DNA of 64,000 bases from Candidatus Heimdallarchaeum aukensis (GCA_021513695.1 CP084166.1:1024001-1088000), one strand, 5' to 3'; shown: positions 1-22,374, counted from the stretch's first letter. Program-made: numbers and translations. The notes: generated from the letters alone by a model not told the origin.

Positions 1-802
1 GCCAGAATTTTATCTCCTTACTTGTTAATTTCTTTTTAGGGGTTAGTAACACTCCTGCAGCAGGAATGTTTATCCCTAGATCTATTCCCAGCACAGCTGG
101 GGGGAGAGAAGAAGAATTCTCTTCTTTAGGAGGATAAAAAGAAGAAGGAAGAACTCTTAGTTGGAAATACACCCACCATTCATGTGTAGAACGTTTATAT
201 CTTAGTTCTAAACTTTTCACCCTCCCTTTTTTTAACTCTTTCTGGTGGAAAGTGCTCATCTCTAAAGGTAACCATAACTTCTGATGATAGGAGGTGTTTC
301 TTCTCCACGTATCTAACGAGTCTCTTATCCCCACCCACCAACGAGTGAGAGTGTTATTCTTCTCTTTAGGTAAATGGACGAGAACGAACCTCTTTGCATT
401 AATTAGTTGTCTTCTCACTCTCTTTATTGGAGGACGAGTAGAACTGGGTTTATAACCTTGTTCGTATAATTGCACAGCTATATCTCTACATTCTTGAAAT
501 TCGTTGTGGGAACAATAAGGGAACATTTTCTTCAGGTCGTGAGGAACAGTCTTTCTTCTCTCTTCTTCTTTAACTTTTGAAGTCGTTAGCGTCAATTCAT
601 CTAGTTTTCCTCTATGAACTCTTATTTTCCCTTTTTTAGTTTTAGCACATATTTTTCTTCTGTTGTGATGAATTATTCTCACATACTTCTCTATTATCCT
701 CGTGTCTCTCCCCGTTATTCTCCTTAACCTTTCCTTTTTCCTCGTCGTCAACACCTCATTCTTTATTCTCACTTTCAAGGTTTTGACGACGTCCTCCACC
801 AT
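1..802 (-). CDS. tnpB: IS200/IS605-family TnpB (OrfB)-like protein, N-terminal ~267 codons. The ORF runs off the window start, which is why it is absent from the ORF track (no stop inside the window).
   Basis: Own minus-strand translation. ATG at 800-802 gives MVEDVVKTLKVRIKNEVLTTRKKERL...FPYCSHNEFQECRDIAVQLYEQGYK...RYKRSTHEWWVYFQLRVL...PAVLGIDLGINIPAAGVLLTP with no stop down to position 1. The KTLKVRI start resembles the TnpB N-terminus (K.YKFRLYPT) and GIDLGI resembles the RuvC-I motif. A GTG at ~691-693 is an alternative start. Confidence 0.55.
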   Translation of the reverse strand, partial: MVEDVVKTLKVRIKNEVLTTRKKERLRRITGRDTRIIEKYVRIIHHNRRKICAKTKKGKIRVHRGKLDELTLTTSKVKEEERRKTVPHDLKKMFPYCSHNEFQECRDIAVQLYEQGYKPSSTRPPIKRVRRQLINAKRFVLVHLPKEKNNTLTRWWVGIRDSLDTWRRNTSYHQKLWLPLEMSTFHQKELKKGRVKSLELRYKRSTHEWWVYFQLRVLPSSFYPPKEENSSSLPPAVLGIDLGINIPAAGVLLTPKKKLTSKEIKFW

Positions 803-973: not shown

Positions 974-2553
974 ACACATGGTGACACAGGAAAAATAAAA
1001 TGGAAATTTAAAACTGGGGGATCAATAAGAGCATCTCCAGCTCTAGGAGATCTTAACAATGATGGCTATCTGGATATAGTTATAGGGTCTTCTGATTCTT
1101 ATTACTATGCATTTAATGGAAGAACTAGGACAATCCTCTGGACACTCAAGACAGAACTAATAATAGGGGGAACTGCTCCAACATTGGCAGACGTTGATGG
1201 GGATAACGAACTAGATGTCCTACTTAATGGTAAAAATGTGTATCTTGTTGGAGGAAGAAAGGGCAATTTAATCTCTATTTATAATCAAAATGAAGAGGTT
1301 GGAACTTCTATCACTGTTGGTGATTTGGATAATGATGGCAGTTTTGAGATGATATATGGTTCCAAAAGTGGAAACGTTTTTTGTTATACGATTACTAATT
1401 CTGATAAAACAAGTTATAGGATCTATTGGCAGGGGGATGGTGGTGATTTCTTCAATTCTGGAAACAGTTTTACAATAGATAAAGATGGAGATACTGTTTC
1501 TACTTTCTCTGAAAAAATTATTGGAACAGACCCAGAAAAAAGGATACGGATGGAGATTTTCTTATAGATGGATATGAAATATCTGCTACTAAAACAGACC
1601 CCTTAGTTCAAGATTCAGATAATAATAATATCGGAGACCAGAATGAAGATTTTGATGGTGATGGGTTAACAAACCTAGAAGAATATAAGAAAAAAACAGA
1701 TCCTTTGAGTAGAGACACAGATGAAGATTTTATACCAGATAAAATTGATATTTTCCCAATTTTGTTTCCAGAAGGTTTAATTTATCTCTCTCTATTCTTT
1801 CTTTTATCAATATTAATAGTTTCTACAATAGTAAAAAAGAGAATAGAAAATAAAGGCGATAAAAATGAAAGTCTTATTCTTAAATTTAAAATGAAAAGAA
1901 ATCAAATATTATCAGAGATATCTTGGAAAGGCTCTTATAATAATTACAAAAGTGTTCATTTACAAGCTTTTAGATGGTTTGGAATTTTTGCTATTTCATC
2001 TGCAATAATGATTAATTTTATCATTTATCCACTTTTTAAAACAGAAATTGTTTACCATGATATTGTAAAAACAAGCTATTCTACAGTTATCTATGTTTTA
2101 ATTAATGTTATTTATTTTGCGTTATTTTATTTATTAGGTTCTGGTTTTTACTCGCTAGGGTTTTCAAGTAATGGAGTAACTTTTAGCTATGATTCTATTG
2201 CTACAAACTTGTTTCTTTCTTCTCTTATCATTTTAAGCATTTCTTTCGTAAAAGTATCAATAAACTTAATTTTACTTCCAATTTTAACTTATTTACTTAC
2301 ATCTGCTTTCATCACACTTTATAATATACGAAAGGAAAAGATTACTAATAGTAATAATCTCTTAAACTTTGTTTTCATCCTTTTTCCAATATCTTTTCTA
2401 TCTCTTTTATGGTATCAAACGCTTTCTTTCTATTTTGCTATTCCACAACAAATTTTGAGGATAATTTCTTTGATAACAGGAGTGTTAATGTTTCTTCTAG
2501 CACTAGAAATCTTTACATTATCTACTCTGAATTCTCGTGAAAAAACAAAATAA
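974..2553 (+). pseudogene. Surface protein remnant with FG-GAP-like beta-propeller repeats, thrombospondin-type-3-like Asp-rich Ca-binding repeats and a C-terminal polytopic membrane domain. It is 5'-truncated with no start before TTG 1184, and it is frameshifted at an A6 run.
   Basis: The frame is open from 974, just after TAG 971-973, and encodes GDLNNDGYLDIVIGS, ADVDGDNELDVLLNG and GDLDNDGSFEMIYGS blades without any start codon. ORF 1184..1567 ends ...TDPEKRIRMEIFL*. Reading the A6 tract 1536-1541 as A7 joins it to the frame of ORF 1705..2553, giving ...TDPEKKDTDGDFLIDGYEIS...DFDGDGLTNLEEYKKKTDPLSRDTDEDF..., followed by a ~240-aa multi-TM tail. Confidence 0.55.
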
Positions 2554-2990
2554 AGAGCATTTGAAATCTAACAATTCTAGTACTCCTTTCTAATTTTTTT
2601 ATCTCACATAGATAATAGTTAGTTGTAATGTTTGAAAACAGGTTGTGAATAAAGTAATAATAGCTCCTCTGTCATTGATTATGCAATAAGTATAATCTTC
2701 CATATTCTTGACATTACATCTTATCTCTCAAATATGATTATCTATATGAACTCATTTCTTTAAACAAACTATCTTCATTTGCTTATTTTTGTAAATAGTA
2801 CATAATTTCCTATTATTAAGACAACAAAAATCTCCTAAAAAGTTCGGTAATACATGATTGAAAGAAGTCGATTGATGGAGAAATCCTGGTGATTAACTTC
2901 TTGAGAGATACTAATTAATTATTTTCGAGCAAATGCTCAAGAAAATGATTATTCTTCTTGGAACTCTTTAAACTACAAGACAGAGTAATT

Positions 2991-4031
2991 TTATGCTCTT
3001 TCACATTTATTTTTTTCATTATTTTCTACAATACATAGTTCTAGAAGTATATCATACGTTTTTATCATCTCTCTCATAGTTTTTAACATTATTGGGTAAA
3101 GACGCATAATACTATGATTCTTTGTATATTTATAATCTGAATGATAATTAGGATAACGCGAAGCACCAACATGTTTTTCCAAATTCATGCTTAAAATAAC
3201 TATATATGCAAACAGTAGTATAAGATAAAGATAACTTTCTATTTGTACTAACCAATCTTCTTTCTGAATTTGTGTGATAAATTCTTCTCTCAACATTCTT
3301 CGCTCATCAGTTTGCAATTTGATATTATATTCTTGTTCGATTGTTTGAATGACATAGTCTGTTATGCTAATGAACTCTTCTTTCACAATTTTATCAAAAT
3401 TTTCTTTTCTTATGGATTTTATTCCTTTCCTAAATAATGAAAACAGCTTGTTGTATTTAATTAATATTTCCTTTAATGTAGTGTGTTCAAGATACAGAGT
3501 TTCTTCTGATTTCCTTTTTTGCTCATAATCACTCAAATATTTATCAATTGCTTCTATAATGCTTAAAAATCCTTCTCTTTGGTTATCATTAGAATAATCA
3601 GCTAAAGATTCATAGAGATCTTTTAGTTTTTCGAAGAAGAATTTAGTAAAAGTATGTCCAACTTTTATAAGCCGTTCAGTTTGACACAGTCCAGTAAGTA
3701 GAAGTAGTGATTTTCCTAATTTCTCAACAGATTGTTGGAGGAAGAAAATAGACTGTGCATATAGTTTCTTGTGATATAGAATTTTTGAAGCTCTTAAATC
3801 CTCTTCAGCAGTATCTAACAGTCCTAAAGCTGATATTAAATCTCTCTTTTCTGGTGGGATCTCATACTGTGATCCATATTTTAATTGCCATATTAATTGC
3901 CTTTTGATATCTTCTATATCTGTTTCTTGTAATGCAATTTTGTCATTATTATCATTCATTAAATAGCACTGATGGTTAATATTTAAATAATTAATGGCAA
4001 CTATTATCATAATGCAATAAAAATCGAGCAT
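2991..4031 (-). CDS. HEPN-domain protein. The likely true start is the internal Met MNDNNDK near 3959.
   Basis: DLRASKILYHKK carries an Rx6H motif. It is followed by AQSIFFLQQSVEKLGKSLLLL, matching the QxxEKxxK helix typical of HEPN. Confidence 0.5.
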   Translation of the reverse strand: MLDFYCIMIIVAINYLNINHQCYLMNDNNDKIALQETDIEDIKRQLIWQLKYGSQYEIPPEKRDLISALGLLDTAEEDLRASKILYHKKLYAQSIFFLQQSVEKLGKSLLLLTGLCQTERLIKVGHTFTKFFFEKLKDLYESLADYSNDNQREGFLSIIEAIDKYLSDYEQKRKSEETLYLEHTTLKEILIKYNKLFSLFRKGIKSIRKENFDKIVKEEFISITDYVIQTIEQEYNIKLQTDERRMLREEFITQIQKEDWLVQIESYLYLILLFAYIVILSMNLEKHVGASRYPNYHSDYKYTKNHSIMRLYPIMLKTMREMIKTYDILLELCIVENNEKNKCERA

Positions 4032-4183
4032 CTGCTCTTTAAAATGAGAAACTATTTTATATTAAAAACTCTTAATTGGTTTTAAAACATGATAATTAAA
4101 GAAAAAAGAATAATTAAATCCTTCTATTTAACTATAAGGAGGAGTAAATAAACATAAAAAAATTGTGAGTAGAAGGGAAATAT

Positions 4184-5419
4184 ATGTCATTTAATTTTGA
4201 AGTTAAAAATACAATTGCATCCTTAAGGCAATCAAGGTTGAAGCTTGGCAATGTAGAAATAGAAACACCAAATTATATAATGACACATATTGAAACTAGA
4301 CGACTTACTACAGGGTATAATCTTGTTGGGAGTCGTGAGCCTAACCCAAAACTGAATGAATTAATTAGTGATCATATACCTGATAGATTAACTGCACAAA
4401 AAATATTTGAAAACTCCGATGAAATAGAAAAATTATGTAACAAGCTAGATAACTTGACTAAATCTGATCGGATGAATTTTGTTCAATTTCGTTTGAAGGC
4501 TGGAAATGAAATTAGCAAATATGAATTATGTCAAATTGTTAGGTTGCAGTCTGATATGAACAAATTTTCCATTATAACAATACCTGATCCTACTTGTTCA
4601 TATAATAACTCTTGGATTGATTCTATGGAAGCAGCTCTCTATGAGGCTAAGGTTTCACAAGAAGTTGGAACATCGGAACTATTTATGCCTACTGTTTCGC
4701 TTGCTCAGCCTTTATTGGATGTGGAAAAGAAAATTTCGTGGTTAATAGATAAGCAAGTTCCATCCATTGGATTAAGAGCACACGGGCCACATTTTCCAGC
4801 TACTTTGCACAAATCAACAAATCTGATTACACAATCAGATAATCCGATTTGGATTCATCTGTTTGACTTATCCAAAAAATATAAGAATGTGTCCCAACTG
4901 CATTTGGCACCTTTGACAAGTGTTGATACTATTTCCTTGAAAAAAAAACATGGGTATAGCAGCAGCAAGAAAAATATTATGGATGGTTTATTGCCAACAC
5001 CAGAGAATATATCTTTAGAACCAACTGCTAGGGAAATAGAAGAACAAAAGGTCAGAGAGATAAAGCGTAGTCAACGGTTTTTGTTTGAGCAATTAGCTTT
5101 AGGTTACATTTCTATAAATGAGCGGACTAAATGGATTGGTCATGAACTTTCTTGTACTTGTCCCATTTGTAAAAAGACAAAAGATATAGATACCTTTAGG
5201 ATTTATCTCTCAACACATGATAAAAACTCACTTCTACAAGTGCATGAATATACTGGTTTTAACCAGGAAATGTTGGCAATTAGAAAAAATATTAGGGATA
5301 ATGATATCTCAGAGTATTTTAGACAAAAAATATTAGTAAAACGACATAGACGCAAACTATCTAAAAGATATCCTGAGCTTGAAAGGTTTATTAATCCGCC
5401 TTTAGATAGTTACTTCTGA
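4184..5419 (+). CDS. TGT-superfamily transglycosylase (queuine/archaeosine tRNA-ribosyltransferase fold) without a PUA domain. It is a DpdA-like candidate.
   Basis: The N-terminus MSFNFEVKNTIASLRQSRLKLGNVEIETPNYIM matches the TGT start (F.F.i..R.g.l.l..g.ieTP.fMpv). The zinc motif SCTCPICKK...STHDKNSLLQVHEY has the CxCxxC...H pattern. The tail VHEYTGFNQEMLAIRKNIRDNDISEYFRQ parallels bacterial TGT (EHNIAFYQQLMQKIRDSISEGRFSQFAQ). IPDPTCSY and IHLFDLS are candidate equivalents of the catalytic TDSGG and MFDCV segments. Confidence 0.65.
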   Translation: MSFNFEVKNTIASLRQSRLKLGNVEIETPNYIMTHIETRRLTTGYNLVGSREPNPKLNELISDHIPDRLTAQKIFENSDEIEKLCNKLDNLTKSDRMNFVQFRLKAGNEISKYELCQIVRLQSDMNKFSIITIPDPTCSYNNSWIDSMEAALYEAKVSQEVGTSELFMPTVSLAQPLLDVEKKISWLIDKQVPSIGLRAHGPHFPATLHKSTNLITQSDNPIWIHLFDLSKKYKNVSQLHLAPLTSVDTISLKKKHGYSSSKKNIMDGLLPTPENISLEPTAREIEEQKVREIKRSQRFLFEQLALGYISINERTKWIGHELSCTCPICKKTKDIDTFRIYLSTHDKNSLLQVHEYTGFNQEMLAIRKNIRDNDISEYFRQKILVKRHRRKLSKRYPELERFINPPLDSYF

Positions 5420-5447
5420 GATATTTATCCAAGAAAAGGTGATATAA

Positions 5448-6059
5448 ATGAATCAAAAAGCGACAAAAAATATGTCGGAAGAAGAAAATAAAATGATAAA
5501 AAAATGGATCTATTTAATGTTAGCTGCAGATAACAATAGTTCAATCAAAGGAAAAGTTAGAATAACTAAAGAATTCTTTTTGATTACCAAGCAGTTAGCT
5601 CCTGAAGTATTTAAGGCAGCTCAATTCTATCCTTATCACTTTGGGCCTTATAGTACTCGTTTTGCTGTTTGTGTTAACGAACTGATTAAAAGTAATCATA
5701 TTAATATATTGTATAAAAGTGGAGATTATCATTATGAGTTGTCAAAAAAAGGTTTAGTTGAAGCTAAAAAATATTTGAAAACAATCCCTAAGAAAGAAAA
5801 ACAAGTAATTGATGATATTAAGAAAAAAAGTAAGTCTCAATCTTTAAAATCAATGTTAAAAGAAATTTACGAAAAATATCCTAAGTATACAGTTCGTTCT
5901 GTTATTAAAGCAGATCTTGATACTAAAAAAGTAAACTTAGATTCTGTAGAAAAAGTAGATGATAGTTCAGGGTTTGTTTCAAGTGATATGAAACATGAAC
6001 GTGACATCGTCTTGAAAGGTGAAGCTGCAAAAAGATTTCTAGAAATAATCTCAAAGTGA
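5448..6059 (+). CDS. Putative antitoxin partner of the downstream GNAT toxin. It is unusually long at 203 aa and has a DUF1778/TacA-like C-terminal tail.
   Basis: It ends 8 nt before the GNAT gene. Its C-terminal KHERDIVLKGEAAKRFLEIISK resembles the DUF1778 tail (ERD.VLL..EA..RFL..L). A possible winged-helix region lies at the N-terminus. Confidence 0.4.
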   Translation: MNQKATKNMSEEENKMIKKWIYLMLAADNNSSIKGKVRITKEFFLITKQLAPEVFKAAQFYPYHFGPYSTRFAVCVNELIKSNHINILYKSGDYHYELSKKGLVEAKKYLKTIPKKEKQVIDDIKKKSKSQSLKSMLKEIYEKYPKYTVRSVIKADLDTKKVNLDSVEKVDDSSGFVSSDMKHERDIVLKGEAAKRFLEIISK

Positions 6060-6066
6060 TACATCA

Positions 6067-6570
6067 ATGACTAGTCATGAAGTAGAGTATAAAATTGAGA
6101 AACTAAATATATCTCATACTCTATTAGACTTTGATTGTGGTGATGAAAACGTTAATGAGTATTTTAATCAGAGAAGCTATGAAGAAGTTGAATTAGGTAA
6201 TGCTCAAATTTATGTGTTTATACTTGTGAATACAAATGACCTCATAGGTTTCTATACGCTTTCAATGAAATCTGTTCGTTTTAACTATGAAGGAAGAGAA
6301 TATGATCAACCTGTGTGTTTGCTTGGGCAAATTGGAGTAAATAAAATTTTCCAAAATAAAGGTTGGGGAACAATATTAATTAAAGATGCAAAGAAGAGAT
6401 GTAAAAAAATCTCAGAAGATATTGGAAGCATTGGTTTATTATTGGAAACATATAAAGAAGAATTAGTGAACGGGTTTTTCAAGAAACTTGGTTTCGAATA
6501 TGTTGAACATCACAAAATGAAAAACCGAGGTACAAGATATAGATTGTTTTGCAAACATGAACATGAATAG
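6067..6570 (+). CDS. GNAT-family acetyltransferase, TacT/AtaT/KacT-like toxin.
   Basis: HTLLDFDCGDENVNEYFNQRSYEE...DLIGFYTLSMKSV matches the H..FdCG...LN.yL...A...ivGyytL signature of GNAT toxins. The acetyl-CoA loop is QNKGWGT. The protein is 167 aa. Confidence 0.7.
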   Translation: MTSHEVEYKIEKLNISHTLLDFDCGDENVNEYFNQRSYEEVELGNAQIYVFILVNTNDLIGFYTLSMKSVRFNYEGREYDQPVCLLGQIGVNKIFQNKGWGTILIKDAKKRCKKISEDIGSIGLLLETYKEELVNGFFKKLGFEYVEHHKMKNRGTRYRLFCKHEHE

Positions 6571-6624
6571 AAAAAGGAGAAATGGATATAAAACAGCTTA
6601 CTCTATTTAAAGCTTAAAGCTATT

Positions 6625-6666
6625 TTTGAATATTATTCTTTACTTTTTTCTAGCTCTAATCCTCTC
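6625..6666. repeat. Copy 1 of a 42-bp direct repeat, tttgaatattat[t/c]ctttacttttttc[t/c]agctctaa[t/c]cctctc.
   Basis: It is 39/42 identical to 9084..9125. All three mismatches are T/C transitions. Confidence 0.8.
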
Positions 6667-6901
6667 TTCTTGTTTAATTACTGTAAGTATAATTACTTGT
6701 TCGAGTGTAAGATTGTTGAAGTTCAGTTCAGTACCTAAATCATCCAAAAAAATAGTTATTTAATAGGAATTTATATTTAACTCGAAAAAATCCCATTTTT
6801 AATATTTCTTTATGAAAGTATTTTCAATAAACGGAAAGTTTGCTACAAGAACTCGAAGAGTTTTCTATTACTATTGCAATCCTTCTTTTTTAAAATGTAA
6901 T

Positions 6902-7354
6902 TTATTGTATAGAATCTATGAACCTCTTTAAATCCTCTTCTGGTAAATCAGTATATTTCTTATATCTCTTGAATTTTTTACTGAAGAATTTTATATCAAC
7001 ATAAATTTGTATTTTCTCTTTGCCTTCAATTTGTTTTCTGTCTGTTACAGGAAAAGTTGCCCAATATAACTTGTATTCTTTTGAATGCTTAAGTTCATAT
7101 TGTTGTTGTTTTGGTCTTATCTTTCCTTGATACTCAACACTATCAATTATCATTTTTATGTCCAACAGAAACATGAGTGTAGAAGCAGTTCCAGCATTAA
7201 TTATGTAAAGTCCCCATTCTTTTGCTTGTGGGTTGAATATTGGTCCAGATAAGTTTAGCGAAGCTCTTTTTGGTCTAAAGAAGGATAGGTATACTGTTAC
7301 AACTGACAGAAAAATAGATATTGTAGAGAATATTAATGAGACTACTTCTGTCAT
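6902..7354 (-). CDS. Hypothetical protein with an N-terminal transmembrane helix, 150 aa.
   Basis: ORF with hydrophobic N-terminus VVSLIFSTISIFLSVVTVYLSFF and no recognisable motif. It lies inside the direct-repeat-bracketed cassette. Confidence 0.4.
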   Translation of the reverse strand: MTEVVSLIFSTISIFLSVVTVYLSFFRPKRASLNLSGPIFNPQAKEWGLYIINAGTASTLMFLLDIKMIIDSVEYQGKIRPKQQQYELKHSKEYKLYWATFPVTDRKQIEGKEKIQIYVDIKFFSKKFKRYKKYTDLPEEDLKRFIDSIQ

Positions 7355-7589
7355 AAATACTAATACACATTATCAATTAATTAACAGTTCGGTATATTGT
7401 TTCACCCATGGCACATTCACCCCAAGATAAAATACTGAACCATTAGATGTTGGATCAATTGGTAAGGAGATCCTAAAGATTAAAGAGTAGTTTGATTTAG
7501 AGATTATTACTATAAATAATACTTATGTTGCTTTGTTTTGTAATGTTAAAAAACAAGTGATAAGCCAAATTTAAGGTTACTAAGTCTAA

Positions 7590-8933
7590 TTATTCCTCAT
7601 GAAGTAAAGGTGTTTCTAAAAGGACATTTGTTAAGTCGATATTGTTAGGGTTTATTTTTTTTGGATAAACAAAAGAGAAGTGGCAGACGTAAGATTTGTT
7701 GTTTCTTATTATTTTGATCCAAACATTTTCTGGTTTTTCCATTATTATTCTTAACATCCATGATGTATTTTCTTCTGATACTCTAAGCAAGGCATAAAGA
7801 GTTCTTTTTTTTAATTCTAGTGTCTTATACTTTTCGAATTTTTCTTTTAACTGTTCTGCGTTCCCCCAAAAAAGGTTGGGAAAAACTTTTTCATCTTTAT
7901 CAAATACTATTGTTATCTCTTTTATTTTATTGTACTCTGAAATATCTTTCAAGATTTCCTTCTTTTCATCAATAGGGATTCTTTGTTGAATACCTCTAGA
8001 TTTTCTTAAAATTTGATCGAGGAGAAACCATATTGAATTGTCCATATATTTAATAAACGAATTAATTTCCATTTTAAATGCAACTTCTGTTTTTTGTATT
8101 TCTACATTACCTTTTTTATTTATCCAACCGTTTATTTTAAAATAAGAAAAACGAGGATCGACATATTCGAAAGATTGTTTGGGTGGAAAGGTTTTTCCAT
8201 TTTTTCTTGCCAAAGTTATTGCATCTTCTATCCATAATTTGAAATTGGTATTTGCTGACCTTGCGGGAATTTTGTCAATAATAACCCATATCTCATCGTT
8301 ATTGAAATCCAGAACTTTTTTACCACTATGTGTAACAGTATTACGTAAGTATAGAAACACACTGAATGCAAGTGATGGATTGATATATTTATCTGAATAG
8401 GGCTCGTAATGTCTAATTAGTTCATCAAAAATACGTTCATACCTATATCGTTTTAATTCGGGAAGATTATTTAAATACGCTTCTGTGAATCTTGAAGTTA
8501 GTTCCAAAAGTTCCAGACCAGCTGAAACATATGTTTCAAAGAGACATATAAAAAGGAACTTTATAGTTGGTATTTTAGTCCAATCAAATCGTATTTGATA
8601 ATACTCTATTTGGTCTCTTACTAATTGGAAGTACGCAAGTCTATATTTAATGCTGTTTAATGTTTCAATATACCTTCCTTTTTTCACTAATTCATTAATA
8701 TGAAAAACTAGTAAACTGTAGTCTCTTGATTCGTTATGTGCTTCCAGATAGTATGAAAACATACTCAAAACGCCAAGACTTGTATCAAGAACATGCCGAG
8801 AAATACTAATTTCTTTTTTTTCTTTTTTTTCTTTTAACGAATTAAAAAACTCATATTCGTTAAGCAAAATTTTTAACAAAAGTTCATGAGATTCTTTACT
8901 TTCTATTTCTTGCTTATCCTTATTTTGATTCAT
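7590..8933 (-). CDS. Hypothetical protein, 447 aa.
   Basis: Long ORF inside the direct-repeat-bracketed cassette. No motif recognised by eye. Confidence 0.5.
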   Translation of the reverse strand: MNQNKDKQEIESKESHELLLKILLNEYEFFNSLKEKKEKKEISISRHVLDTSLGVLSMFSYYLEAHNESRDYSLLVFHINELVKKGRYIETLNSIKYRLAYFQLVRDQIEYYQIRFDWTKIPTIKFLFICLFETYVSAGLELLELTSRFTEAYLNNLPELKRYRYERIFDELIRHYEPYSDKYINPSLAFSVFLYLRNTVTHSGKKVLDFNNDEIWVIIDKIPARSANTNFKLWIEDAITLARKNGKTFPPKQSFEYVDPRFSYFKINGWINKKGNVEIQKTEVAFKMEINSFIKYMDNSIWFLLDQILRKSRGIQQRIPIDEKKEILKDISEYNKIKEITIVFDKDEKVFPNLFWGNAEQLKEKFEKYKTLELKKRTLYALLRVSEENTSWMLRIIMEKPENVWIKIIRNNKSYVCHFSFVYPKKINPNNIDLTNVLLETPLLHEE

Positions 8934-9083
8934 TTGTTATTAATATTATTTTATAACAAAATAAAAAAGTTTAGTTAAATATTACTGTGCAATTCTTCCT
9001 CTATTTTGATAAATAAATGAACTAGAATAATTTTCTTTCCAAGAATAAACTGCCTTTAAGGATAGTTAATAAGTAGTTAAAGG

Positions 9084-9125
9084 TTTGAATATTATCCTTT
9101 ACTTTTTTCCAGCTCTAACCCTCTC
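9084..9125. repeat. Copy 2 of the 42-bp direct repeat.
   Basis: It matches 6625..6666. It is immediately followed by the CT-rich tract 9126..9300. Confidence 0.8.
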
Positions 9126-9300
9126 CCCTCTCCCATCTTTACAATCCTTCTTTCCCCTGAAATTATTTTTTTTGTTTCCTTTTTCTATATTCTCTTTTCT
9201 TTCTAACCAACCTTATACTCTTTTTCTTTACCTTTGTTCTTGTTATTGCTTTTGTTACTGTTTTTAGTCCTAGTTCTGTACTATTAGTTCAGTCTCTTTT
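9126..9300 (+). repeat. Polypyrimidine (CT-rich) low-complexity tract.
   Basis: Seen directly as cctctcccctctcccatctttacaatccttctttcccc..., with the same compositional style as 700..960. ORF 9085..9267 is an artefact. Confidence 0.7.
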
Positions 9301-9500
9301 TTAGGATAATCTGTGGATAGTAATTCTTCAAGAAATTAGAGGAAAAATATGAAATCAATAATAAACTTTCTCTAAATTGTCTTAAGGTCTTCTTCTAGTT
9401 ATAACCTCCTTACAAGAAGATGCTTTACTTTGCAACAAAATGAAAAATAAACTAAAGAAACTATTCATAGGGTTTAAATACTTATTTCTCGTATAGGCTA

Positions 9501-10637
9501 ATGATGGAAATAAACAAAATTTATCTTAAAGATTGTATAGAAGGTATGAAGGAACTTCCTGAAGATAGCATAGATTTAATATTTGCAGATCCACCATATA
9601 ATCTTCAATTGAAAAATGAATTATATCGACCTAATCAGTCATTAGTGGATGCTGTAAATGATGAATGGGATAAATTTTCATCATTTGAAGAGTACGATGA
9701 TTTTACAAAAAAGTGGTTATCAGAATGTAGGAGGGTGTTAAAAAAAACAGGTTCTATATGGGTAATAGGGTCGTATCACAATATATTTAGAATCGGAAAA
9801 ATAATGCAAGATTTAGGTTTCTGGATATTAAATGATATCATTTGGATAAAAACAAACCCTATGCCAAATTTTAGAGGTACTAGATTTAATAATGCACATG
9901 AAACTCTGATTTGGGCTTCGAAAAATGAAAAAGCTAAACCTACTTTTCATTATAAAGCTATGAAGGTATTTAATAATGATAAACAAATGCGAAGTGATTG
10001 GTATATTCCAATTTGTATAGGAAAAGAAAGGTTGAAATTAAACGGAAAAAAATTACATTCTACACAAAAACCTGAAGCATTGCTATATAGAATAATAATA
10101 TCAACATCAAATGTAAATGATATAGTGCTTGATCCTTTTATGGGTTCAGGTACTACAGCTGCAGTAGCAAAGAAACTAAGAAGGAATTTTATTGGTTTTG
10201 AAACAAATGAAATATATGTAAAAGCAGCAAGAGAGAGAGTTGTTAAAGTCATACCCATGGATCCTGACATTTTGGATTATAAAGTGGAAAAAAAACCACC
10301 AAAAGTTCCTTTTGGTACTTTAGTAGAACATAATTATATTAAAGCTGGAGATTGGCTTTATTCAAAAGATATGAGATATAAAGCAATAATAAAAGCAAAT
10401 GGGTCAATTGAATATCAAGGTAAAAACGGTTCTATTCATAAAATTAGTGCTCAAATTTTAAATAAAAAAGCAAATAATGGATGGGATTTTTGGTATGTAA
10501 AAGAAAACGATAATCTTGTATCGATTGATACTATTAGAAGAAATTATGCAAGTAAAAACATGAATTATATGAATGATGAAATAGATATGAGAAATAAAAA
10601 AGTAACAGACAAACTTTTAACTAATTACTTGGAATAA
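9501..10637 (+). CDS. CcrM/M.HinfI-family beta-class N6-adenine DNA methyltransferase (probable GANTC specificity) with the CcrM-type C-terminal domain.
   Basis: Motif IV DLIFADPPYNLQL precedes motif I VLDPFMGSGTTAAVAKKL. Near-colinear matches to Caulobacter CcrM as I recall it include WVIGSYHNIFRIG, LGFWILNDIIWIKTNPMPNFRGTRFNNAHETLIWASK, KQMRSDW, HSTQKPEALLYRII, and C-terminal PKVPFGTLVE...GSIHKISAQIL...NGWDFWYV. Confidence 0.9.
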   Translation: MMEINKIYLKDCIEGMKELPEDSIDLIFADPPYNLQLKNELYRPNQSLVDAVNDEWDKFSSFEEYDDFTKKWLSECRRVLKKTGSIWVIGSYHNIFRIGKIMQDLGFWILNDIIWIKTNPMPNFRGTRFNNAHETLIWASKNEKAKPTFHYKAMKVFNNDKQMRSDWYIPICIGKERLKLNGKKLHSTQKPEALLYRIIISTSNVNDIVLDPFMGSGTTAAVAKKLRRNFIGFETNEIYVKAARERVVKVIPMDPDILDYKVEKKPPKVPFGTLVEHNYIKAGDWLYSKDMRYKAIIKANGSIEYQGKNGSIHKISAQILNKKANNGWDFWYVKENDNLVSIDTIRRNYASKNMNYMNDEIDMRNKKVTDKLLTNYLE

Positions 10638-10642
10638 TCTTC

Positions 10643-11512
10643 GTGCTTACTAATTATCTTCCCTATGAAGTTTTTAAAAGAATATTAACAAAGACAATCT
10701 TTCAAAATGCTAAAATAAGTTTATTAGAAAAAGTTGCTAAATATCCTTCAAGATATACAGGTTTATTTAGGCCTACCAAACCTAAATTAAAATTAATCCA
10801 GAACATTACTCAATCAAATGAAATTCTATTTGGCGATGCTTTTGAGATCATAATTAATGAATATTTGAATAGATTAGGTTTCTCTCCAATTAAAAAAAAT
10901 TATTCCTATAATGGAAATGACTTAATGTTTGATCAGATTGTAGGAAAAGAAAATACTATTATTTACATAGAACAAAAAATAAGAGATGATCATGATTCAA
11001 CAAAAAAAAGAGGTCAAATAGAAAATTTTGAGAAAAAGGGTGAATTATTATTGAAACTATATCCTGATTTCAAAATTACTGGTATAATGTATTTTATAGA
11101 CCCAAATTTAAAGAAAAATCGAAGATATTATATGCAAGAATTACAAAGAATAAGTACTCAATTTAATTTTGAAACTCATCTCTTTTATGGAAAAGAGTTT
11201 TTTGAATGGATAGGAAAAGATGAAATCTGGTTAGAAATAACAAGCTATTTATCAAAGTGGAAAGAAGAGATACCTGATTTTCCCACAATTAATTTTGATG
11301 AAAATCCCGAAGAATCTTTTGAGGAAATCAAGCATCTACAACCTAATTTACTGATAAAGCTTCTAAGAAATGATGCAATATGTAAGGAGATTTTTCCCGA
11401 ATTGTTCCCGGAAAAAACGACATTAAATCTACTTCTGGAATACTATATTCATGAAAGAGAAAAAAATAAGACTAATACAATGGTTATTGAACATTTAAAA
11501 AAAGTGTTGTGA
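10643..11512 (+). CDS. Putative Type II restriction endonuclease cognate to the CcrM-like methyltransferase.
   Basis: GTG start 6 nt after the methyltransferase stop. A candidate PD-(D/E)xK core lies at DLMFDQIVGKENTIIYIEQKIRDD (D...ExK). No other homology recognised. Confidence 0.45.
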   Translation: MLTNYLPYEVFKRILTKTIFQNAKISLLEKVAKYPSRYTGLFRPTKPKLKLIQNITQSNEILFGDAFEIIINEYLNRLGFSPIKKNYSYNGNDLMFDQIVGKENTIIYIEQKIRDDHDSTKKRGQIENFEKKGELLLKLYPDFKITGIMYFIDPNLKKNRRYYMQELQRISTQFNFETHLFYGKEFFEWIGKDEIWLEITSYLSKWKEEIPDFPTINFDENPEESFEEIKHLQPNLLIKLLRNDAICKEIFPELFPEKTTLNLLLEYYIHEREKNKTNTMVIEHLKKVL

Positions 11513-12322
11513 AAAAAAATCTAAAATCACAAAAAAGATCTATATAATTGTACGATTTTTTGTTCAAAAAAAAACTATCACCGTTTGATTGACATGTTAT
11601 AAAAATAGTTTCTGAAGAAAAACCTTTACATCCATTAACTCTCAGATGCTTTATACCATTATTTTGAAATAGATACTACATGCTTGAATTAAAATGAATT
11701 TCTGGACTAGTTGATTTTCCTTTCTTAATTATAAATTATATAATTTTCCTAATTGAATTGAGAGATAATTTTTCTTTTTCAAACCAAGCATGATCTATTA
11801 TAGGAGGTTTTAAACGGAGAAGATTCAAACTTTGGATATATATTCTACATATATTATAAATATTGTTTGATATTCATCATTTGAGTTTCTCAATAAAAGA
11901 TTATTCCATATTTTAGTTTCTAGTTTGAAGATTATGAATTATTTAATAAATGTCTTAAATTCGGGATACCTTTCTTTCATATTTTCCTCAGAATCATGTA
12001 ATGGAATTTGTAGTGTTCCTTTTACTAATATTCTATATTCCTCAAGTTTAAGAATATGATTTGATTATAGCAGTGTGCCATTACTTGTTATGTTTGTTGT
12101 TATTTTTTTCGATAAATGTAGAGATTCTGGTAAAGAAATAATGTTTTCAGTTATGAATTGTATATTATCATGAAATCTAACCTTCTTAATTTAACTCAAA
12201 TTAATTAAGTAGTAAAGATAATAAAAGAAGGTATCTAAATGTTTATTGCGGAGATTTATTATAGGGTTTTTAATTTTCATCTCCCACATCGAATAATACG
12301 CATTTATCAATAAATCCTTATA

Positions 12323-13342
12323 TTAATTAGAGCAATATGAAGTTTTATTTGTGAAAATTTCAGGATCATCTAGTTCTCTCAATCTTTTAAGTGTAACACT
12401 TTTCCATTTATCATAAAAATCAACTAAAATACCTTCTTTTTCCTTTAATGTTGGTTTTCCTGTATCATCATCCATAATAAATTCAAATCCGTAATCAATC
12501 TTAAAATTAAATTGATCTGTATGCAAAACTCTTTCATGAGGAAACTTAATATCGTTATCCAAAGATGAACAAAAATTATAATGTCGAACTTCAATATGAA
12601 TTGATGAGTTTGAATATAAACCAAGCCAGTCCATTATATTTTTCTTTGTTGATTGAGGATTATATCTATTTGCTTTCGGTGTTGTAGTACAAATAATAAA
12701 ATTGCCATTTCTTATATTCTCCTTTTCAAATTGTTTTACTAACCAATTTAATGTTTTATAGTGTCGCTTATTATTAACTAAATTTACACCAAGATATCTG
12801 TCCACAATCATTACTTCCTTTGCAAATCTGAATATCTTTTTGATAAATCTTGAATGCACTTCTGTTAAATTATTTAATTCTGCTAAGTTTAATGATGTAT
12901 TCTGTATTTTATTGTAGAAATCTATTTCTGTAATTAATTCCTCTGATACATAGCTACTACTCAATTTTCCAATTTCACACTTATTTCTACAATTATTGTA
13001 AGGAAGTATTATCCAATCTGGATTTTCTCTGCTTTGAATTTCACAATAAGCTATACATTCATCTTTTTTTTTCTTTCCTTCAATTTTAATTTCAATTATT
13101 CTTCTATTATTTTGCATATTCGAAAGCATTTCTTCTATGATGAGTCTTTCTTCTATTGGTATAAGTGAAAGGGTTTTTGATTTAATAGGTAAACTAAAAC
13201 CTTCTGGTTTTAGAAGTATACCGTTTTTTCTAAGGGAAATCAATAAAGAAACTAATATTTTAGAACGATACATAATAAGCGTAGAATTTTCAGAATTGTC
13301 ATCTAAAATTTTAGGAGATAATACAAATGTCTGTACCGTCAT
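12323..13342 (-). CDS. Partner protein of the ABC ATPase, 339 aa. It carries a Cys4 element with a possibly degenerate HNH-like scaffold.
   Basis: Its start overlaps the upstream stop (ATGA, 13339-13342). ECIAYCEIQSRENPDWIILPYNNCRNKCEIGK has Cx3C...DWIILP...Cx3C, reminiscent of the HNH DHIIP/CxxCN arrangement but with W in place of H. Confidence 0.4.
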   Translation of the reverse strand: MTVQTFVLSPKILDDNSENSTLIMYRSKILVSLLISLRKNGILLKPEGFSLPIKSKTLSLIPIEERLIIEEMLSNMQNNRRIIEIKIEGKKKKDECIAYCEIQSRENPDWIILPYNNCRNKCEIGKLSSSYVSEELITEIDFYNKIQNTSLNLAELNNLTEVHSRFIKKIFRFAKEVMIVDRYLGVNLVNNKRHYKTLNWLVKQFEKENIRNGNFIICTTTPKANRYNPQSTKKNIMDWLGLYSNSSIHIEVRHYNFCSSLDNDIKFPHERVLHTDQFNFKIDYGFEFIMDDDTGKPTLKEKEGILVDFYDKWKSVTLKRLRELDDPEIFTNKTSYCSN

Positions 13343-15249
13343 TCAAATAGCTCCTTATAACTTAGATCAAAGAAATCATCTGGCCATTCATTTATAAAAT
13401 TACCATGTTTGTCAAATTCGATAGGAACTATATTAGCTCCTAGTTTTGTTTTTTCAACAAATATAATTGATATAAGTTTTGGACTTATTTTCTTTTTCCT
13501 AATGAGTTTTTTGATTCGTAGAATTAATTGTTGACTATGAGTTTCAATTATAAATTGTTTTGATAAATTCCTTTTAACATGTTCAACAAAAAATTCTCCC
13601 AATTCAGCTTGCAATCTTGGATTAAGATGTATCTCTGGTTGTTCTATTAAAAGAATTTCATTTGGTTTATTTGACATTATCGTTTGTACAAGAATGGGGA
13701 GAACCTGACTCACACCAAATCCAATATCCGGTAATGCCACCGGATATTTTGTGATATTATCTTCGAATTTCAAGGAATATACCCCTGATAGTTTGTCTTT
13801 ATCTGCTGTATATGAGACTGTGTAACCGATTTTTAGTTTTTTCAACCAATTATTTAGTTCATTTATTTTATTTTTATATGAATAGATAAAATCTGCTGTT
13901 TTTGATCCTGAAACACCTACATTAATAGGTCTACTCCCTCCAAATATGTAATATCGAGATGGTTTATCTCTAAGAGGACCAATAAAAGTAATGCTCTTCA
14001 TCAATTCAATGAATTGATTTCTATTCTCTTCAGTCACGTCATAATCAAAATATAAATTCTTTTTTCCATGTTCAAGTTTAAAAAACGTGTTGATTTTAAG
14101 TAATTCACCTTTAATTGGATTACCAACAAATTCAATAGATAAATTATGATGAATAAACTTAATTAATTTGTTAATTAGATCTGTTTCTATCTCCGATGGG
14201 TCTTTAAACATAATAATTCTAAATAATTTCTCAATTTTCATATTAATTGATTCTTCAATTAGAATCCTAAAATCATGATCGATTAAAATATCATCTTTTA
14301 TTTCATTTAAACCAATTTCAACCTTTTTGCAAATTTTTTCAATTATTTTATCTTTTTTTAACAGAAAAAATTTGTTTTTTTCTAATTCTCTTCTAATTTT
14401 TTCTACTATATTTTTAATTTCAATTTTTTTCGCTTGACTATTTTCCTGATAAATTTTCAATATAGTTTCTATAGGAACTTTAATATTAATCGTAGGAATT
14501 TTATCGTTATCAAAATGAATCTTCTTTTCAATTTTTTCTTCTATATCAAAGACATCAATTTTAAATTTCTCTTCATATGCAGAATAAGAGATTATAAATG
14601 GTGTATCAATGTTTTCAACAATTGTGATTTTCTTGTATCCTCCAGATATTGACTCTCTCAAAAACGGTAAAAGAATCATCGGTATAACTCTTTCTGTACT
14701 TATTTTTGAAAGAGAACAAGTATATTTTATCCGCTGATAAATCCTAGAATTTTCTGTTTTGCAATATACTAATTTTGCTGAAATTAATGATTTTTCAATC
14801 TTTTTGCCATAATTTCTAGATATTCCCCATATTATTTTATCTAAAAGAATGTAAGGTCTCTCTTCAATCTTTTTTGAAATGTATGTTAAGTTGATTTTGA
14901 ATTTTTTAAAAATCCTTTCCTTGTATGGTGAAATATGAAGATAATCTGAGGATCGCCACTGTAACCCAATTTCAACTCTTTTTCTAGTATCATGACCAAA
15001 AACAATTTCTTCGAAAGGTCCAATATCAACATAAGTCCCTTGATGTAGAAGAACATTATTTGGGTCATTGTCTTCTATAGTTTGTTTTAAGGCTAAAAGT
15101 GATTTCAAAATAGATGATTTTCCACTACTATTTTCTCCAAATATCAGTGTAATCGGTTTACATGGTATTCTAGAGCCCTTTTTTCCAAAGGCTTTAAAAT
15201 TTCTTAAATAAATTTCAGTTAACATGAACAAACACCAAGTTTCTTTCAT
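13339..15249 (-). CDS. ABC/OLD-type ATPase of the AAA_15/AAA_21 kind, similar to the ATPases of Septu PtuA, PARIS AriA and AbiL.
   Basis: N-terminal LTEIYLRNFKAF...ITLIFGENSSGKSSILKSL is the Walker A. C-terminal ILLIEQPEIHLNPRLQ is the Walker B/D-loop, and FIIETHSQQLI is the H-loop. A long insert separates the two halves. Confidence 0.8.
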   Translation of the reverse strand: MKETWCLFMLTEIYLRNFKAFGKKGSRIPCKPITLIFGENSSGKSSILKSLLALKQTIEDNDPNNVLLHQGTYVDIGPFEEIVFGHDTRKRVEIGLQWRSSDYLHISPYKERIFKKFKINLTYISKKIEERPYILLDKIIWGISRNYGKKIEKSLISAKLVYCKTENSRIYQRIKYTCSLSKISTERVIPMILLPFLRESISGGYKKITIVENIDTPFIISYSAYEEKFKIDVFDIEEKIEKKIHFDNDKIPTINIKVPIETILKIYQENSQAKKIEIKNIVEKIRRELEKNKFFLLKKDKIIEKICKKVEIGLNEIKDDILIDHDFRILIEESINMKIEKLFRIIMFKDPSEIETDLINKLIKFIHHNLSIEFVGNPIKGELLKINTFFKLEHGKKNLYFDYDVTEENRNQFIELMKSITFIGPLRDKPSRYYIFGGSRPINVGVSGSKTADFIYSYKNKINELNNWLKKLKIGYTVSYTADKDKLSGVYSLKFEDNITKYPVALPDIGFGVSQVLPILVQTIMSNKPNEILLIEQPEIHLNPRLQAELGEFFVEHVKRNLSKQFIIETHSQQLILRIKKLIRKKKISPKLISIIFVEKTKLGANIVPIEFDKHGNFINEWPDDFFDLSYKELFE

Positions 15250-15317
15250 TCACACTCTTGATGAATTCTTTACAAATTTATGTAATAAAAATAAAAACTT
15301 TTCTGGAATATCTATGT

Positions 15318-18300
15318 TTAATTTTCACTAAGATATTTTATTATTTTAGGAAGTAGGAAAACATTTTTTCTTAATGTTGAAAAACTTAATGCTTCTCCTA
15401 GAAGTGTGTGAACTTGTTTAGGTATTTTTCCAAACATTGGATGACTAACTACATATCCATAGGTAAATGATTTGAAATTCCCACTTTCTATTATTACACG
15501 CATTGGCTCTTCCAACAAGCTCATATCACCAAAGTAAATGCTTGATAATGGTGATGATAATGCTCTTAAACGTTCAATAGTTGCTTTTTCAATATCTTCA
15601 CTCAAAAAAATATCACTATCTTCTATTATATCAAGAGTTATTAATAAATATGAATCACCAGCAAATATAATTGGTGGACTTAAAAGTTTACTAAATTTTT
15701 TTGCTAATGAAAATGCATTATTTGTTGAGTTGATAAAATGATATAAGCTTGGATATTTTCTACTTTTTTCATCTTTTTTTACATTTCTTCCATAATAAGT
15801 TCTGACCATCTTTTCTAAGTAGTTTAATCCTTTATTTATTGTGTATAAGTTTCGAGGTTTTTCCAGATAATTAAGTATTTCTTGTTTATCTGTTTTGTCA
15901 TAAGCTTTTACTGTTACACGAAAACCTTTTGCTATTTGTTGATTAGTGACTTTATAGAATAGATAAGAAGGTATCGTCATATCATTCCATCTACCTGCTT
16001 CATTAAATGTAAGTATAAATTCAGGAGAGGGATATAATCTGAAATGGTTTAATGCTGTTTTTATAGATGGAAAATAATTTTTCAAAAAATCATCTAAATA
16101 GATATTATCAACTGAAAATGCTCTTTTACTAACTCTTCCAAATAGACTGAATTTTCTTTTAGTTCTTTCCGAAATCTTGCTTCTGCTAAAAACTGGTAGG
16201 ACATGTTCATTATTGTTGATTAGTATATCTCTAATAAAACTTCTTAACTGATGAAATTTGATATTTTGATCTTTTAGAGTGGCATTTTTGTTCAAAGCAG
16301 AAATCATAGACACTAATCTTGGCTTCAAATCTGTTTCTTCTCCTCTCATCCTTTTAATTACTTGCCTAAAATATTCTAGATTGATCATAGAATCGAAATA
16401 AGTTGTTGAGCCATAGTCTGTTTTTAAGGGGAAAGGAGGAAGGATAATTAAAATTTCATGCCATGAATATGTAGTTCCAAATGCTAATGAAGAGGTTCCT
16501 ACTATATTTTTTTTAGGTGTTTCTTCTATTAATAATGTGTCACGAGAATCGTGAGTAATAGAAACTGCATCATAATTGTTTAAATGGAGGTATTCTACTA
16601 ATGAATCTACAAACTGTTTATTGTTAACATAAAAAATTACTTTACCCTCTTGTAAATATTTTTCAAATGATTTTTTTCTATTGTCAATTCGTGATTTTTT
16701 TACAAGCTTGTCTAATATTTCAAAAATTTTTTTAAAATTTATTTCCTCTTCATATTTACCCTCACAAATAAATGATGCTGCACAATAATCAATATTGAAA
16801 TTTAAGAGATATCTCAGAAAAATACCTTTAATCGGAGTATTAATTATTTTAAATTCCTCTGGTTCTTGAATGTCTTCATTAAAATTAGTTATTTGAAATT
16901 GTGTCATCCATTTTTTTGAATTTGGATCAACTAATGTGTTCAACATGGAAATTACTAATTTCATACTTGTGATAGATGCATCAGTAATTACAAAGCGAGG
17001 AACATTTATGTTATTATTTACCATTAATCGATTCCTTGCTTCTATTAGTAAATCAATAAAATTTTTTGCAACTGTTGGTCCAGAATTAGTTAATTCATCA
17101 AAGATGAACATATATGTCTTTGTGAATAGTAATTTCCAATTGTATGATTGTTTTAGAAAATAATCTAAAGCTTGGGAAGATACTAATATAACTTTTTGTC
17201 CTTGTTTCTCTAGTGCTTTTTTCAATCGATTTCCTGTTTCACTGAAAATTGTTTCATACCCCTTAAGTGTTATTGGATCTCTTATTAACTCTTTTTCTCT
17301 TTTACCAATAATTAATTCTAAATGGACATTTTTTTCTATATCATTTTTGATTAATCTTTGAATTTTATCTTTAGTTTGTATTAAGGTTGTAATTCTTGGA
17401 CAGAAATACAGAATAGTAAAGTTTTTTTTAGTTTTTGCAAGCTTTTTAATATAATTTGCAATCACATAATTTTTTCCAACACCTTGAGATGAACCATTTA
17501 TTATTATATTATAACAATCATTGGTTAATAATTTTAGGAAGTTCTTCTCATGTTCTTTTCTTACATTTTCTATTTCGTTTCTAGTAACACTCTGTCTTTT
17601 TACGATAGAAGGTTGAATCTTCTCTTTAGTTTCAGGATAAGCTTCAATAAATTCTGTTTTTTCATCCTTCAAAATTATTTTTAACTCCTCTCCTCTAGTT
17701 CCTTCAAAAAAATACATTCTTTTATTGTTTTTTTCTTTTATTCTCATCGATATTTTTCCACTCATAAATAATTCAAAAATTCGTCTTCTTTCAAAATCTT
17801 CCAATATATATTCTTTCTTTTTACCAAATTCTGTTTCCACTATAGTACTAGGAATCAAGTTACATAGAAATCGTAATATTTTCCTTAAATCGGTTTCAGA
17901 TTTAATATGAAAAGAAGATATAGCTCCAGGTAAAACTATTTGAACTTCAATCTCACTGTTATAATTTTGAGTTTCGTTATAATATAATTGTGCATAGGAG
18001 AATACTTTTAAGTATTTCTGGAGAGCTGTTGCAATTCTGTAAAAATCTCTTGCAGGAATCTTTTTGTTCTTATGTAAATTTAGTTTTCTTAGTTTTTCCT
18101 TTGAAAAATCTTCGACAATTAATTGTTCAATATAATCTTGAAGTAATCGCTCTTTCGTCATATTTACAAAAAATATATATGATTTAATATCGCCAATACA
18201 TAAGAACTCGATTTGGTTCATTTCATAATTAAAGGCTTCCTCTTGATTGTTAGATGTTTTCTTTCTAATGATTATAAAATCAGGTTTTTTTTCCCTAAAT

Positions 18301-18779: not shown

Positions 18780-18780
18780 T

Positions 18781-21702: not shown

Positions 21703-22374
21703 AAACTTCTCTCCTCATAGGTAATTGTACTAAAACTTATCTTGAATGTTAAACAATTTCTTTTTTTATTTATATAATTTTTGATAATAAATGTTTTCAT
21801 CTTTTATTCATTTATTATCTGTATTCAATAAATTATTCATGAGTTTAGTTTTATCTTTTTAATATTAATCAAAAATATGCTATATGTTTAACTTTGACGA
21901 CTTAGAGTAATCTCAAATTGTTGTTATAGTAGTTAGATTTATTTTTTATTTATATTCACCCACTAAAGTTTTATTTAACTCGCTTCAACTCTTTAAATTA
22001 AATATGTCTAGTTGATAGATACATTTTCATCCTCCTATACGCTTGAAAATACTAGATGATTCTCTAGTTTAAATTATATGGTTAATGTAAGAAGATATAC
22101 AAGTTTAAATGCCATAAAACGGAGACGTTGGCCATGAAACAAAAATAAATAGAATACTGTTGTTTTCTAAGTGCAAAGAAAAATATATAGAAGTATAAAA
22201 TACAAAAATTAGTGTAAGAGAAAAATAAGAAACTCAACAAGAATTTACAAAAAGTAGTTTAGCATAAAAAATAAGAAAGTATTTTATTATGGTGCAATTG
22301 CTAAGACATGACAAAATAATATGGTTGTTTGGTGATTTAATTAGAAAAATTTAATAACCAAAGTAATTAAAAAA

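Follow-up and report, generated by a model that had tools for sequence, protein, structure and literature searches.

The first gene of a three-gene operon in Candidatus Heimdallarchaeum aukensis encodes a zinc-binding protein of 411 aa that has the tRNA-guanine transglycosylase (TGT) fold and represents a rare, uncatalogued and very divergent branch of the TGT superfamily. The gene is located at 4184..5419 on the plus strand of the window, the 64,000-nucleotide (nt) stretch that was analysed (GCA_021513695.1 CP084166.1:1024001-1088000), and is followed by genes for a PanA-like winged-helix protein, which is a putative antitoxin, and a GNAT toxin. Among the loci recovered, outside two very divergent clades, the TGT-like and PanA-like genes remain a pair and the toxin is swapped (GNAT or membrane protein). 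The tentative interpretation is that the TGT-like protein, as an accessory, is the third component of a mobile toxin-antitoxin (or abortive-infection) module of the PanA-like kind, where it would act as a sensor or regulator.

The ATG open reading frame (ORF), whose position and length had been given correctly by an earlier sequence-only reading of this DNA, has a product identical to NCBI UJG41675.1 (K9W45_04220, 'hypothetical protein') of the circularised Ca. H. aukensis genome. The Ca. H. endolithica ortholog is 98% identical. Because homologs span 36-98% identity and about 100 representatives were found by profile search, the ORF was accepted as a real gene. In a single-sequence search, relatives were detectable in no more than seven of 5.8 billion clusters at 90% identity, and an exhaustive profile search of 1.84 billion representatives returned 101 proteins, mostly of 350-430 aa. 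No phage relatives were found by tblastn or in BFVD, and a PADLOC scan gave no match for the protein or for 78 of its relatives. Matches to curated models were confined to residues ~320-383 and were below threshold, at 16.6 bits for Pfam TGT (cutoff 26.3) and 21.6 bits for NCBIfam TIGR00432, the archaeosine TGT (arcTGT) model (cutoff 350). The protein is basic, with an isoelectric point (pI) of 9.0 overall and 10.4 for the C-terminal tail.

Alignments to E. coli Tgt and P. horikoshii arcTGT were made with hhalign, from which posterior confidences were taken, and with HMMER; the strands and their order were read from a predicted model with DSSP, and its local reliability from the predicted local distance difference test (pLDDT). 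Residue counts are given relative to an alignment of the 78 relatives. The protein has the superfamily fold, a (beta/alpha)8 barrel with a C-terminal zinc subdomain (CxCxxC...H). Confidence in the hhalign alignment was high in three regions (the lid and 'ETP' strand; Gln122 of helix 3 with I-P-D135-P of beta4; and CxCxxC...H with the helices that follow) and was 0-3 elsewhere. The N-terminal three-stranded beta-sheet 'lid' with beta1 ending in E-T-P29 (residues 1-29, at 4184..4270 on the plus strand, as are all features of the protein; DSSP strands 3-11, 14-21, and 24-28) aligns confidently with the N-termini of arcTGT and E. coli Tgt, and P29 is present in 74/78 relatives. The zinc-binding motif C324-x-C326-x2-C329-x24-H354 (5153..5245) aligns to the zinc sites of arcTGT, QTRT1, and E. 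coli Tgt, and its ligands are conserved in 76/78 (C324), 75/78 (C326), 70/78 (C329), and 77/78 (H354) relatives. The sequence-only reading had recognised a TGT N-terminus, the CxCxxC...H site, and C-terminal helices that parallel those of bacterial TGT; high-confidence alignment to E. coli Tgt and P. horikoshii arcTGT supports all three, the N-terminus having the pattern R..ETP.

Three active-site Asp residues are invariant in TGTs and in the DNA-modifying paralog DpdA alike (PMC10164549), and only one of them, the base-binding Asp, could be placed confidently. This is D135, at the end of beta4 in I-P-D135-P (4580..4591; hhalign confidence 7-9), the equivalent of E. coli D143 in the 'IFD143EC' strand, arcTGT and DpdA D130, and Z. 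mobilis D156; Asp occupies this position in 51/78 and Glu in 8/78 relatives (59/78 together). The earlier suggestion that IPDPTCSY (residues 133-140) stands in for TDSGGFQ was not upheld, as this segment aligns instead with the E. coli 'IFD143EC' strand. Alignment confidence is low around the TDSGGFQ position, which was assigned to beta-strand 97-102 by the strand order of the model. No conserved counterpart of the general acid/base Asp of that motif (Z. mobilis D102, E. coli D89, P. horikoshii D95, DpdA D95) was found in the low-confidence columns at residues 97-105, where the family has [HYF]-P-[RQK]; E59, on the strand neighbouring beta3, could replace it.

The nucleophile column was located by pairing the beta8 motif S-V-D248-T-I-S251-L (4919..4939; family G-[IV]-D-[TS]-x-S) with the TGT motif G-[VI]-D-[ML]-F-D, which ends in the nucleophile, and hhalign confidence was low there. 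This pairing puts Ser251 on the nucleophile column (Z. mobilis D280, E. coli D264, P. horikoshii D249, DpdA D256); position 251 is Ser in 53, Thr in 9, and Ala in 9 of 78 relatives, and D248 is kept in 74/78. An alternative candidate for the catalytic acid is provided by F301-E302 (5084..5089; family F-[D/E]), which HMMER pairs with F248-D249 of arcTGT; position 302 is Asp in 48 and Glu in 10 of 78 relatives, and Glu in 8/8 aligned members of the clade to which the window belongs. Between beta8 and the beta-hairpin is a variable insertion composed of a loop and a helix (residues 253-298, 4940..5077), which ranges from 13 to 86 aa across the family and is poorly ordered in the model (pLDDT 55-83). 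The E. coli GGL base-pocket motif (213-215) pairs with R198-A199-H200 (family consensus R-Y-R), in a low-confidence part of the alignment. The family has a near-invariant polar set of its own, composed of E59, Q122, D135, W223-x-H225, H240, D248, E355, and E362.

Canonical transglycosylation by the TGT-like protein appears doubtful, given that just one Asp of the three is recognisably retained. Relative to arcTGT (TgtA; PDB 1iq8), E. coli Tgt, Z. mobilis TGT, and QTRT1, the protein is only ~12-16% identical and far below curated cutoffs. It differs from these enzymes in that the TDSGGFQ position has no Asp, the nucleophile is replaced by Ser (or by a relocated Glu/Asp), the GGL pocket motif is replaced (low-confidence alignment), the variable post-beta8 insertion is present, and C1-C3/PUA domains are missing. 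The non-catalytic eukaryotic subunit QTRT2 (PDB 6fv5) has no detectable sequence relationship to the TGT-like protein; QTRT2 partners a catalytic TGT paralog, whereas the linked partners of the TGT-like protein are a toxin and a PanA-like protein.

In the operon, the TGT-like gene is separated by 28 nt from the PanA-like gene (5448..6059, plus strand, 203 aa), which is separated by 7 nt from the GNAT gene (6067..6570, plus strand, 167 aa). The toxin-antitoxin pair that had been regarded as a neighbour is thus present at 5448-6570, but it shares the operon and is co-conserved with the TGT-like gene. The UniRef name of the 203-aa protein is 'Antitoxin SocA-like Panacea domain-containing protein'. 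It matches PADLOC PDC-M19A at 1.3e-14 (range 1e-12 to 1e-14), more weakly the domain on the antitoxin side of DarG, and, through a winged helix-turn-helix (wHTH), AspA; its Pfam matches to DUF4364 and SocA_Panacea are weak or below threshold. Among 26 PanA-like members, DUF4364 was matched in eight (E 1.8e-6), and PF13274 (Panacea, DUF4065) in five, only at E>=0.022. The name 'PanA-like' was chosen because the Panacea model is only weakly matched and the firmer matches are to DUF4364/winged-helix, PDC-M19A, and the DarG domain. A C-terminal extension of ~45 aa (IDDGPGFVSS...LKxEAAKRFLELIS; residues 160-203, window 5925-6059) occurs only in GNAT-linked PanA-like proteins and is absent from those linked to membrane proteins; judged from this distribution, it is a plausible candidate for a toxin-specific (GNAT) neutralising segment.

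The GNAT was assigned to the TacT/KacT/AtaT (aminoacyl-tRNA acetyltransferase) family by its matches to PDB chains of TacT, KacT, and AtaT (E 9e-17 to 5e-7) and to Pfam Acetyltransf_1/7. The acetyl-CoA motif Q-x-x-G-x-G is present as 'QNKGWG'. Near the C-terminus, where GNAT toxins have the catalytic Tyr ('NFYLKYAF' of 7f37), the window GNAT has Phe ('GFFKKLGF'), as do those of loci L004 and L008; those of L001, L003, L011, and L012 have Tyr, so that four of the seven GNATs have the catalytic residue and three, including that of the window, have Phe. Tyr-to-Phe is the substitution used to inactivate TacT and AtaT for crystallography, and for this reason some of these GNATs may be attenuated or may use another residue. 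The toxin is homologous to those of the TacAT/AtaRT/KacAT systems, in which the antitoxin is a ribbon-helix-helix (DUF1778) protein; in contrast, the window has a PanA-like wHTH antitoxin with a special C-terminal extension, a third, TGT-fold gene, and Phe at the catalytic Tyr position.

The order TGT-like (~398 aa), PanA-like (~203 aa), GNAT (143-174 aa as called) was found for every contig-placed homolog of either gene, at loci with unrelated flanks (L001/L002, L003, L004, L008-L010, L011, L012-L014, and L005 of Ca. H. endolithica). These represent two Heimdallarchaeum species and several metagenomic lineages. Junctions within the triads were -7 to +28 nt, apart from one of 89. Since the TGT-like versions are only 27-48% identical (86% for the close pair L008/L011), the arrangement appears to be old. 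Loci of two more distant clades were recovered by exact look-up and a metagenome scan. At each one whose upstream sequence is long enough (L006, L007, L016, L020/L021, and L023) the order was PanA-like (155-169 aa), a protein of 175-199 aa with about three predicted transmembrane (TM) segments, and TGT-like, with genes overlapping or at most 14 nt apart; at L018, which is cut short upstream, the TM protein is still present. The PanA-like proteins of these clades match that of the window at E 1e-19 to 1e-32, and more weakly for the truncated L006 copy. Over 11 loci, all module junctions were -20 to +28 nt (apart from one of 89), and pairwise identities of the TGT-like and PanA-like proteins correlate (Spearman 0.69), a descriptive value only, as the pairs are non-independent. 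Two still more divergent TGT-like clades are represented by one locus each. At L024 (330-1000), a 93-aa winged-helix-looking gene is 6 nt upstream of the TGT-like gene and a 60-aa gene is AbrB-like by eye. At L026/L027 (L026 3001-4703), a 311-aa protein with six TM segments and an unrelated RimJ-type GNAT are upstream, and the TGT-like protein has Asn at position 135.

Kurata et al. (2022, PMC8832971) showed that Panacea antitoxins combine with toxins of many kinds, membrane toxins in particular, and listed predicted PanA-GNAT pairs and 25 'accessory' third-gene clusters. The module resembles PanA-PanT in that a PanA-like gene is directly upstream of interchangeable toxins that include membrane toxins and GNATs, and accessory third genes are a known category there. 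It differs in that the Panacea domain is only weakly detectable and the lineage is archaeal (Asgard). No TGT-like accessory gene was found in the text or supplements examined (PMC8832971).

The TGT-like and PanA-like genes remain together and co-diverge even where the toxin differs, and for this reason the TGT-like protein would most likely work through the PanA-like protein; and because the toxin changes from a tRNA acetyltransferase to a membrane protein, it is unlikely to be tied to the chemistry of one toxin. As a sensor or regulator it may recognise nucleic acid, either tRNA-like or foreign, and control toxin release. The TGT parts that it keeps contact tRNA in known TGTs, and nucleic-acid binding would fit both these parts and the basic character of the protein, including its very basic C-terminal tail. 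Alternatively, the protein could be an enzyme with chemistry other than canonical guanine exchange, could regulate the availability of the antitoxin, or could be an independent enzymatic effector checked by the same antitoxin.

Several points weigh against a sensor or regulator of a PanA-like module. Any physical link among the three proteins is hypothetical. The invariant polar set listed above would fit an active enzyme equally well, and the mapping of the general acid/base and nucleophile relies on low-confidence alignment columns. The Panacea assignment is soft, the DUF4364 and wHTH matches being stronger than those to PF13274. Finally, no PanA-like gene was detected at the single loci (L024 and L026/L027) of the two most divergent clades.

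A broader proposal, which we regard as speculative and on balance doubtful, is that the family constitutes an unrecognised class of archaeal tripartite immune or toxin-antitoxin modules, in which a scaffold derived from tRNA modification serves as an infection sensor or nucleobase-transferring regulator and licenses toxins that can replace one another (a membrane protein or a tRNA-acetylating GNAT). Such a scaffold would recognise viral or altered nucleic acid, or would modify tRNA or the PanA-like protein.

An active RNA-directed enzyme was considered unlikely. It would break or exchange the N-glycosidic bond in tRNA (or rRNA), either as a second toxin (or effector) that the PanA-like protein neutralises, or to prepare or mark tRNA for the GNAT. 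The fold is closest to tRNA-acting TGTs, whose N-terminal lid, base-binding Asp, and zinc subdomain are kept; E59, D248, D/E302, and H225 could form a relocated active site; the partner toxin family in the clade of the window acts on aminoacyl-tRNA; and the protein is basic. These points are offset by the missing beta3 Asp, by Ser/Thr/Ala on the nucleophile column, and by the pairing of the E. coli GGL pocket with R198-A199-H200 (low-confidence alignment). In addition, the partner effector is a membrane protein in most clades, so that assistance to a tRNA-acetylating toxin is not a general role.

Three further readings were each judged to be far less probable. The first, which is very unlikely, is that the genes are not a conflict system but an operon for metabolism or tRNA modification, in which a TGT-like enzyme of salvage or modification is encoded together with a winged-helix regulator and a small membrane transporter. 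The layout in most clades (wHTH, membrane protein, TGT-like) would suit such an operon, and L007 adjoins ribosomal protein and RNA polymerase genes; however, the third gene in the clade of the window is a bona fide TacT/AtaT-family toxin, the module is rare and patchy with unrelated flanks, the PanA-like protein matches defence and antitoxin models, and the membrane proteins (~180 aa, ~3 TM) match no known transporter families.

The second, put forward in the sequence-only reading, is that the protein resembles DpdA and acts as a DNA transglycosylase, drawing on the archaeosine precursor pool of the host to place preQ0 or another 7-deazaguanine in genomic DNA, and this is highly improbable. 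Like DpdA (7ui4) and phage DpdA, the protein is a TGT-superfamily paralog separate from the housekeeping copy, located in a defence island (here beside a restriction-modification system), with a zinc site and an enlarged insertion after beta8, and TGT folds can act on DNA, as phage and bacterial DpdA show (PMC10164549). In contrast to the TGT-like protein, DpdA has no N-terminal lid (PMC10164549), keeps all three Asp residues, and works with DpdB/DpdC. Among PDB matches at E<=10, the DpdA structure 7ui4 did not appear, and arcTGT scored 4e-9. The absence of a PADLOC DpdA match for the protein and its 78 relatives is subject to the presence of a DpdA model in that PADLOC release, which was unconfirmed. 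The conserved neighbours were only the PanA-like gene and the toxin, with no dpdB/dpdC or 7-deazaguanine synthesis genes among them; the screen of the remaining window for que genes was not exhaustive. The protein does not look like DpdA, and the earlier claim that its profile fits DpdA better than a housekeeping archaeosine TGT is countered by the lid, the missing similarity to 7ui4, the missing dpdB/dpdC, and the single placed Asp. As a whole, the observations of that reading were confirmed in part (the ORF, TGT N-terminus, zinc site, and neighbours, not the TDSGGFQ replacement), and its interpretation was partly supported.

The third, to which little credence is given, is a protein modifier similar to Cap10, in which a repurposed TGT fold would bind a nucleobase or transfer it to a protein partner, either the PanA-like protein or the toxin, as happens in the deazaguanylation of type IV cyclic oligonucleotide-based antiphage signalling systems (CBASS). 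Cap10 (PDB 9ntn) has lost the zinc site that the TGT-like family keeps, and has D73/S74/D122/D248, of which the D73/S74 pair is missing in the TGT-like protein. Cap10 also depends on a QueC-like Cap9 and a CD-NTase; these partners are absent beside the TGT-like gene, and no QueC-like Cap9 partner is conserved nearby.

In line with the sequence-only reading, the protein is not the housekeeping archaeosine TGT, and the refuting condition named there, that it be the only TGT homolog in its genome, does not hold, as a separate, single tgtA spanning the whole TIGR00432.2 model was reported for both Heimdallarchaeum genomes (PMC8813620 supplement). The TGT-like protein covers only positions 270-331 of this model, and is therefore a second, non-housekeeping paralog. 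No PUA domain was detected in it by curated-library scans, in agreement with the earlier description; as a pointer to DpdA, however, this feature is uninformative in this lineage because most Asgard tgtA homologs are without the C-terminal region (PMC8813620 supplement). Although the best curated match, a weak one, is to TIGR00432 and a missing PUA is common in Asgard tgtA, the housekeeping identity was rejected as virtually untenable, given the partial match far below the cutoff, the reported full-length tgtA, the extreme rarity of close relatives, and a location in a toxin-antitoxin-like operon instead of as a single-copy housekeeping gene.

The module is part of a variable defence island, and a recent exchange is possible, since a 6.2-kb block comprising a membrane protein, HEPN, and the triad (978..7178; blastn of the window vs L005) is 97.5% identical to Ca. 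H. endolithica, compared with 80-94% for the flanking core genes, and the next 15 kb (7178-22332) has no counterpart there apart from one 134-bp match. That 15-kb stretch carries a GANTC-type restriction-modification pair, an AAA ATPase with DUF3696, a ResIII helicase, and large unknown genes. The neighbours named in the sequence-only reading, namely HEPN (2991-4031, minus strand), the toxin-antitoxin pair, and a type II restriction-modification system (9501-11512), were all recovered by library scans. The HEPN gene is divergent from the triad, with which it shares an AT-rich intergenic region (4032..4183, from direct reading of the sequence) presumed to be the operon promoter region, and it is not conserved beside the triad at other loci; it encodes 346 aa, with the HEPN domain only at residues 71-115 and a long uncharacterised remainder.

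The restriction-modification system has, at 9501-10637, a CcrM-like N6-adenine methyltransferase carrying a RAMA domain at its C-terminus and, at 10643-11512, a restriction enzyme of the HpyAIV family. Between it and the triad are two minus-strand ORFs without a Pfam or PADLOC match (6902-7354, 150 aa; 7590-8933, 447 aa); the shared block ends at 7178, so that the 447-aa ORF is wholly, and the 150-aa ORF partly, within the stretch that lacks a Ca. H. endolithica counterpart. Four genes on the minus strand at 12323-21702 are probably one or two further defence systems. They encode a 339-aa unknown protein, a 636-aa AAA_15/AAA_21 ATPase with DUF3696 (PADLOC NsnB / HEC-03B / PDC-M55A-like) whose gene overlaps the 339-aa gene by 4 nt, a 1153-aa ResIII helicase, and a 973-aa protein without a Pfam match. 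Outside the island, an ORF running off the window start (1-802, minus strand) is basic-rich and by eye resembles a transposase/TnpB-like N-terminal region, and a DNA methyltransferase (N6_N4_Mtase in two stretches plus UPF0020) is located far away at 34029-35312 on the plus strand.

The literature searched contained no account of toxin-antitoxin modules, PanA-type or other, that include a TGT-fold protein. Both the branch within the TGT superfamily and the tripartite PanA-type arrangement are new, but neither is new as a category. The branch defines a family of about 100 representatives without an existing Pfam, NCBIfam, PHROG, or PADLOC model, and it cautions that a PUA-less, island-borne TGT paralog should not automatically be annotated as DpdA. 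The TGT fold has already been recruited to immunity twice, in DpdA for DNA modification and in Cap10, where a deazaguanine is conjugated to protein. If the proposed role is true, the family would be a third independent immune recruitment of this fold, serving in Asgard and other archaea as an obligate partner to swappable toxins and to a promiscuous antitoxin, and would offer a tractable three-gene system for studying how accessory proteins control toxin-antitoxin and abortive-infection modules.
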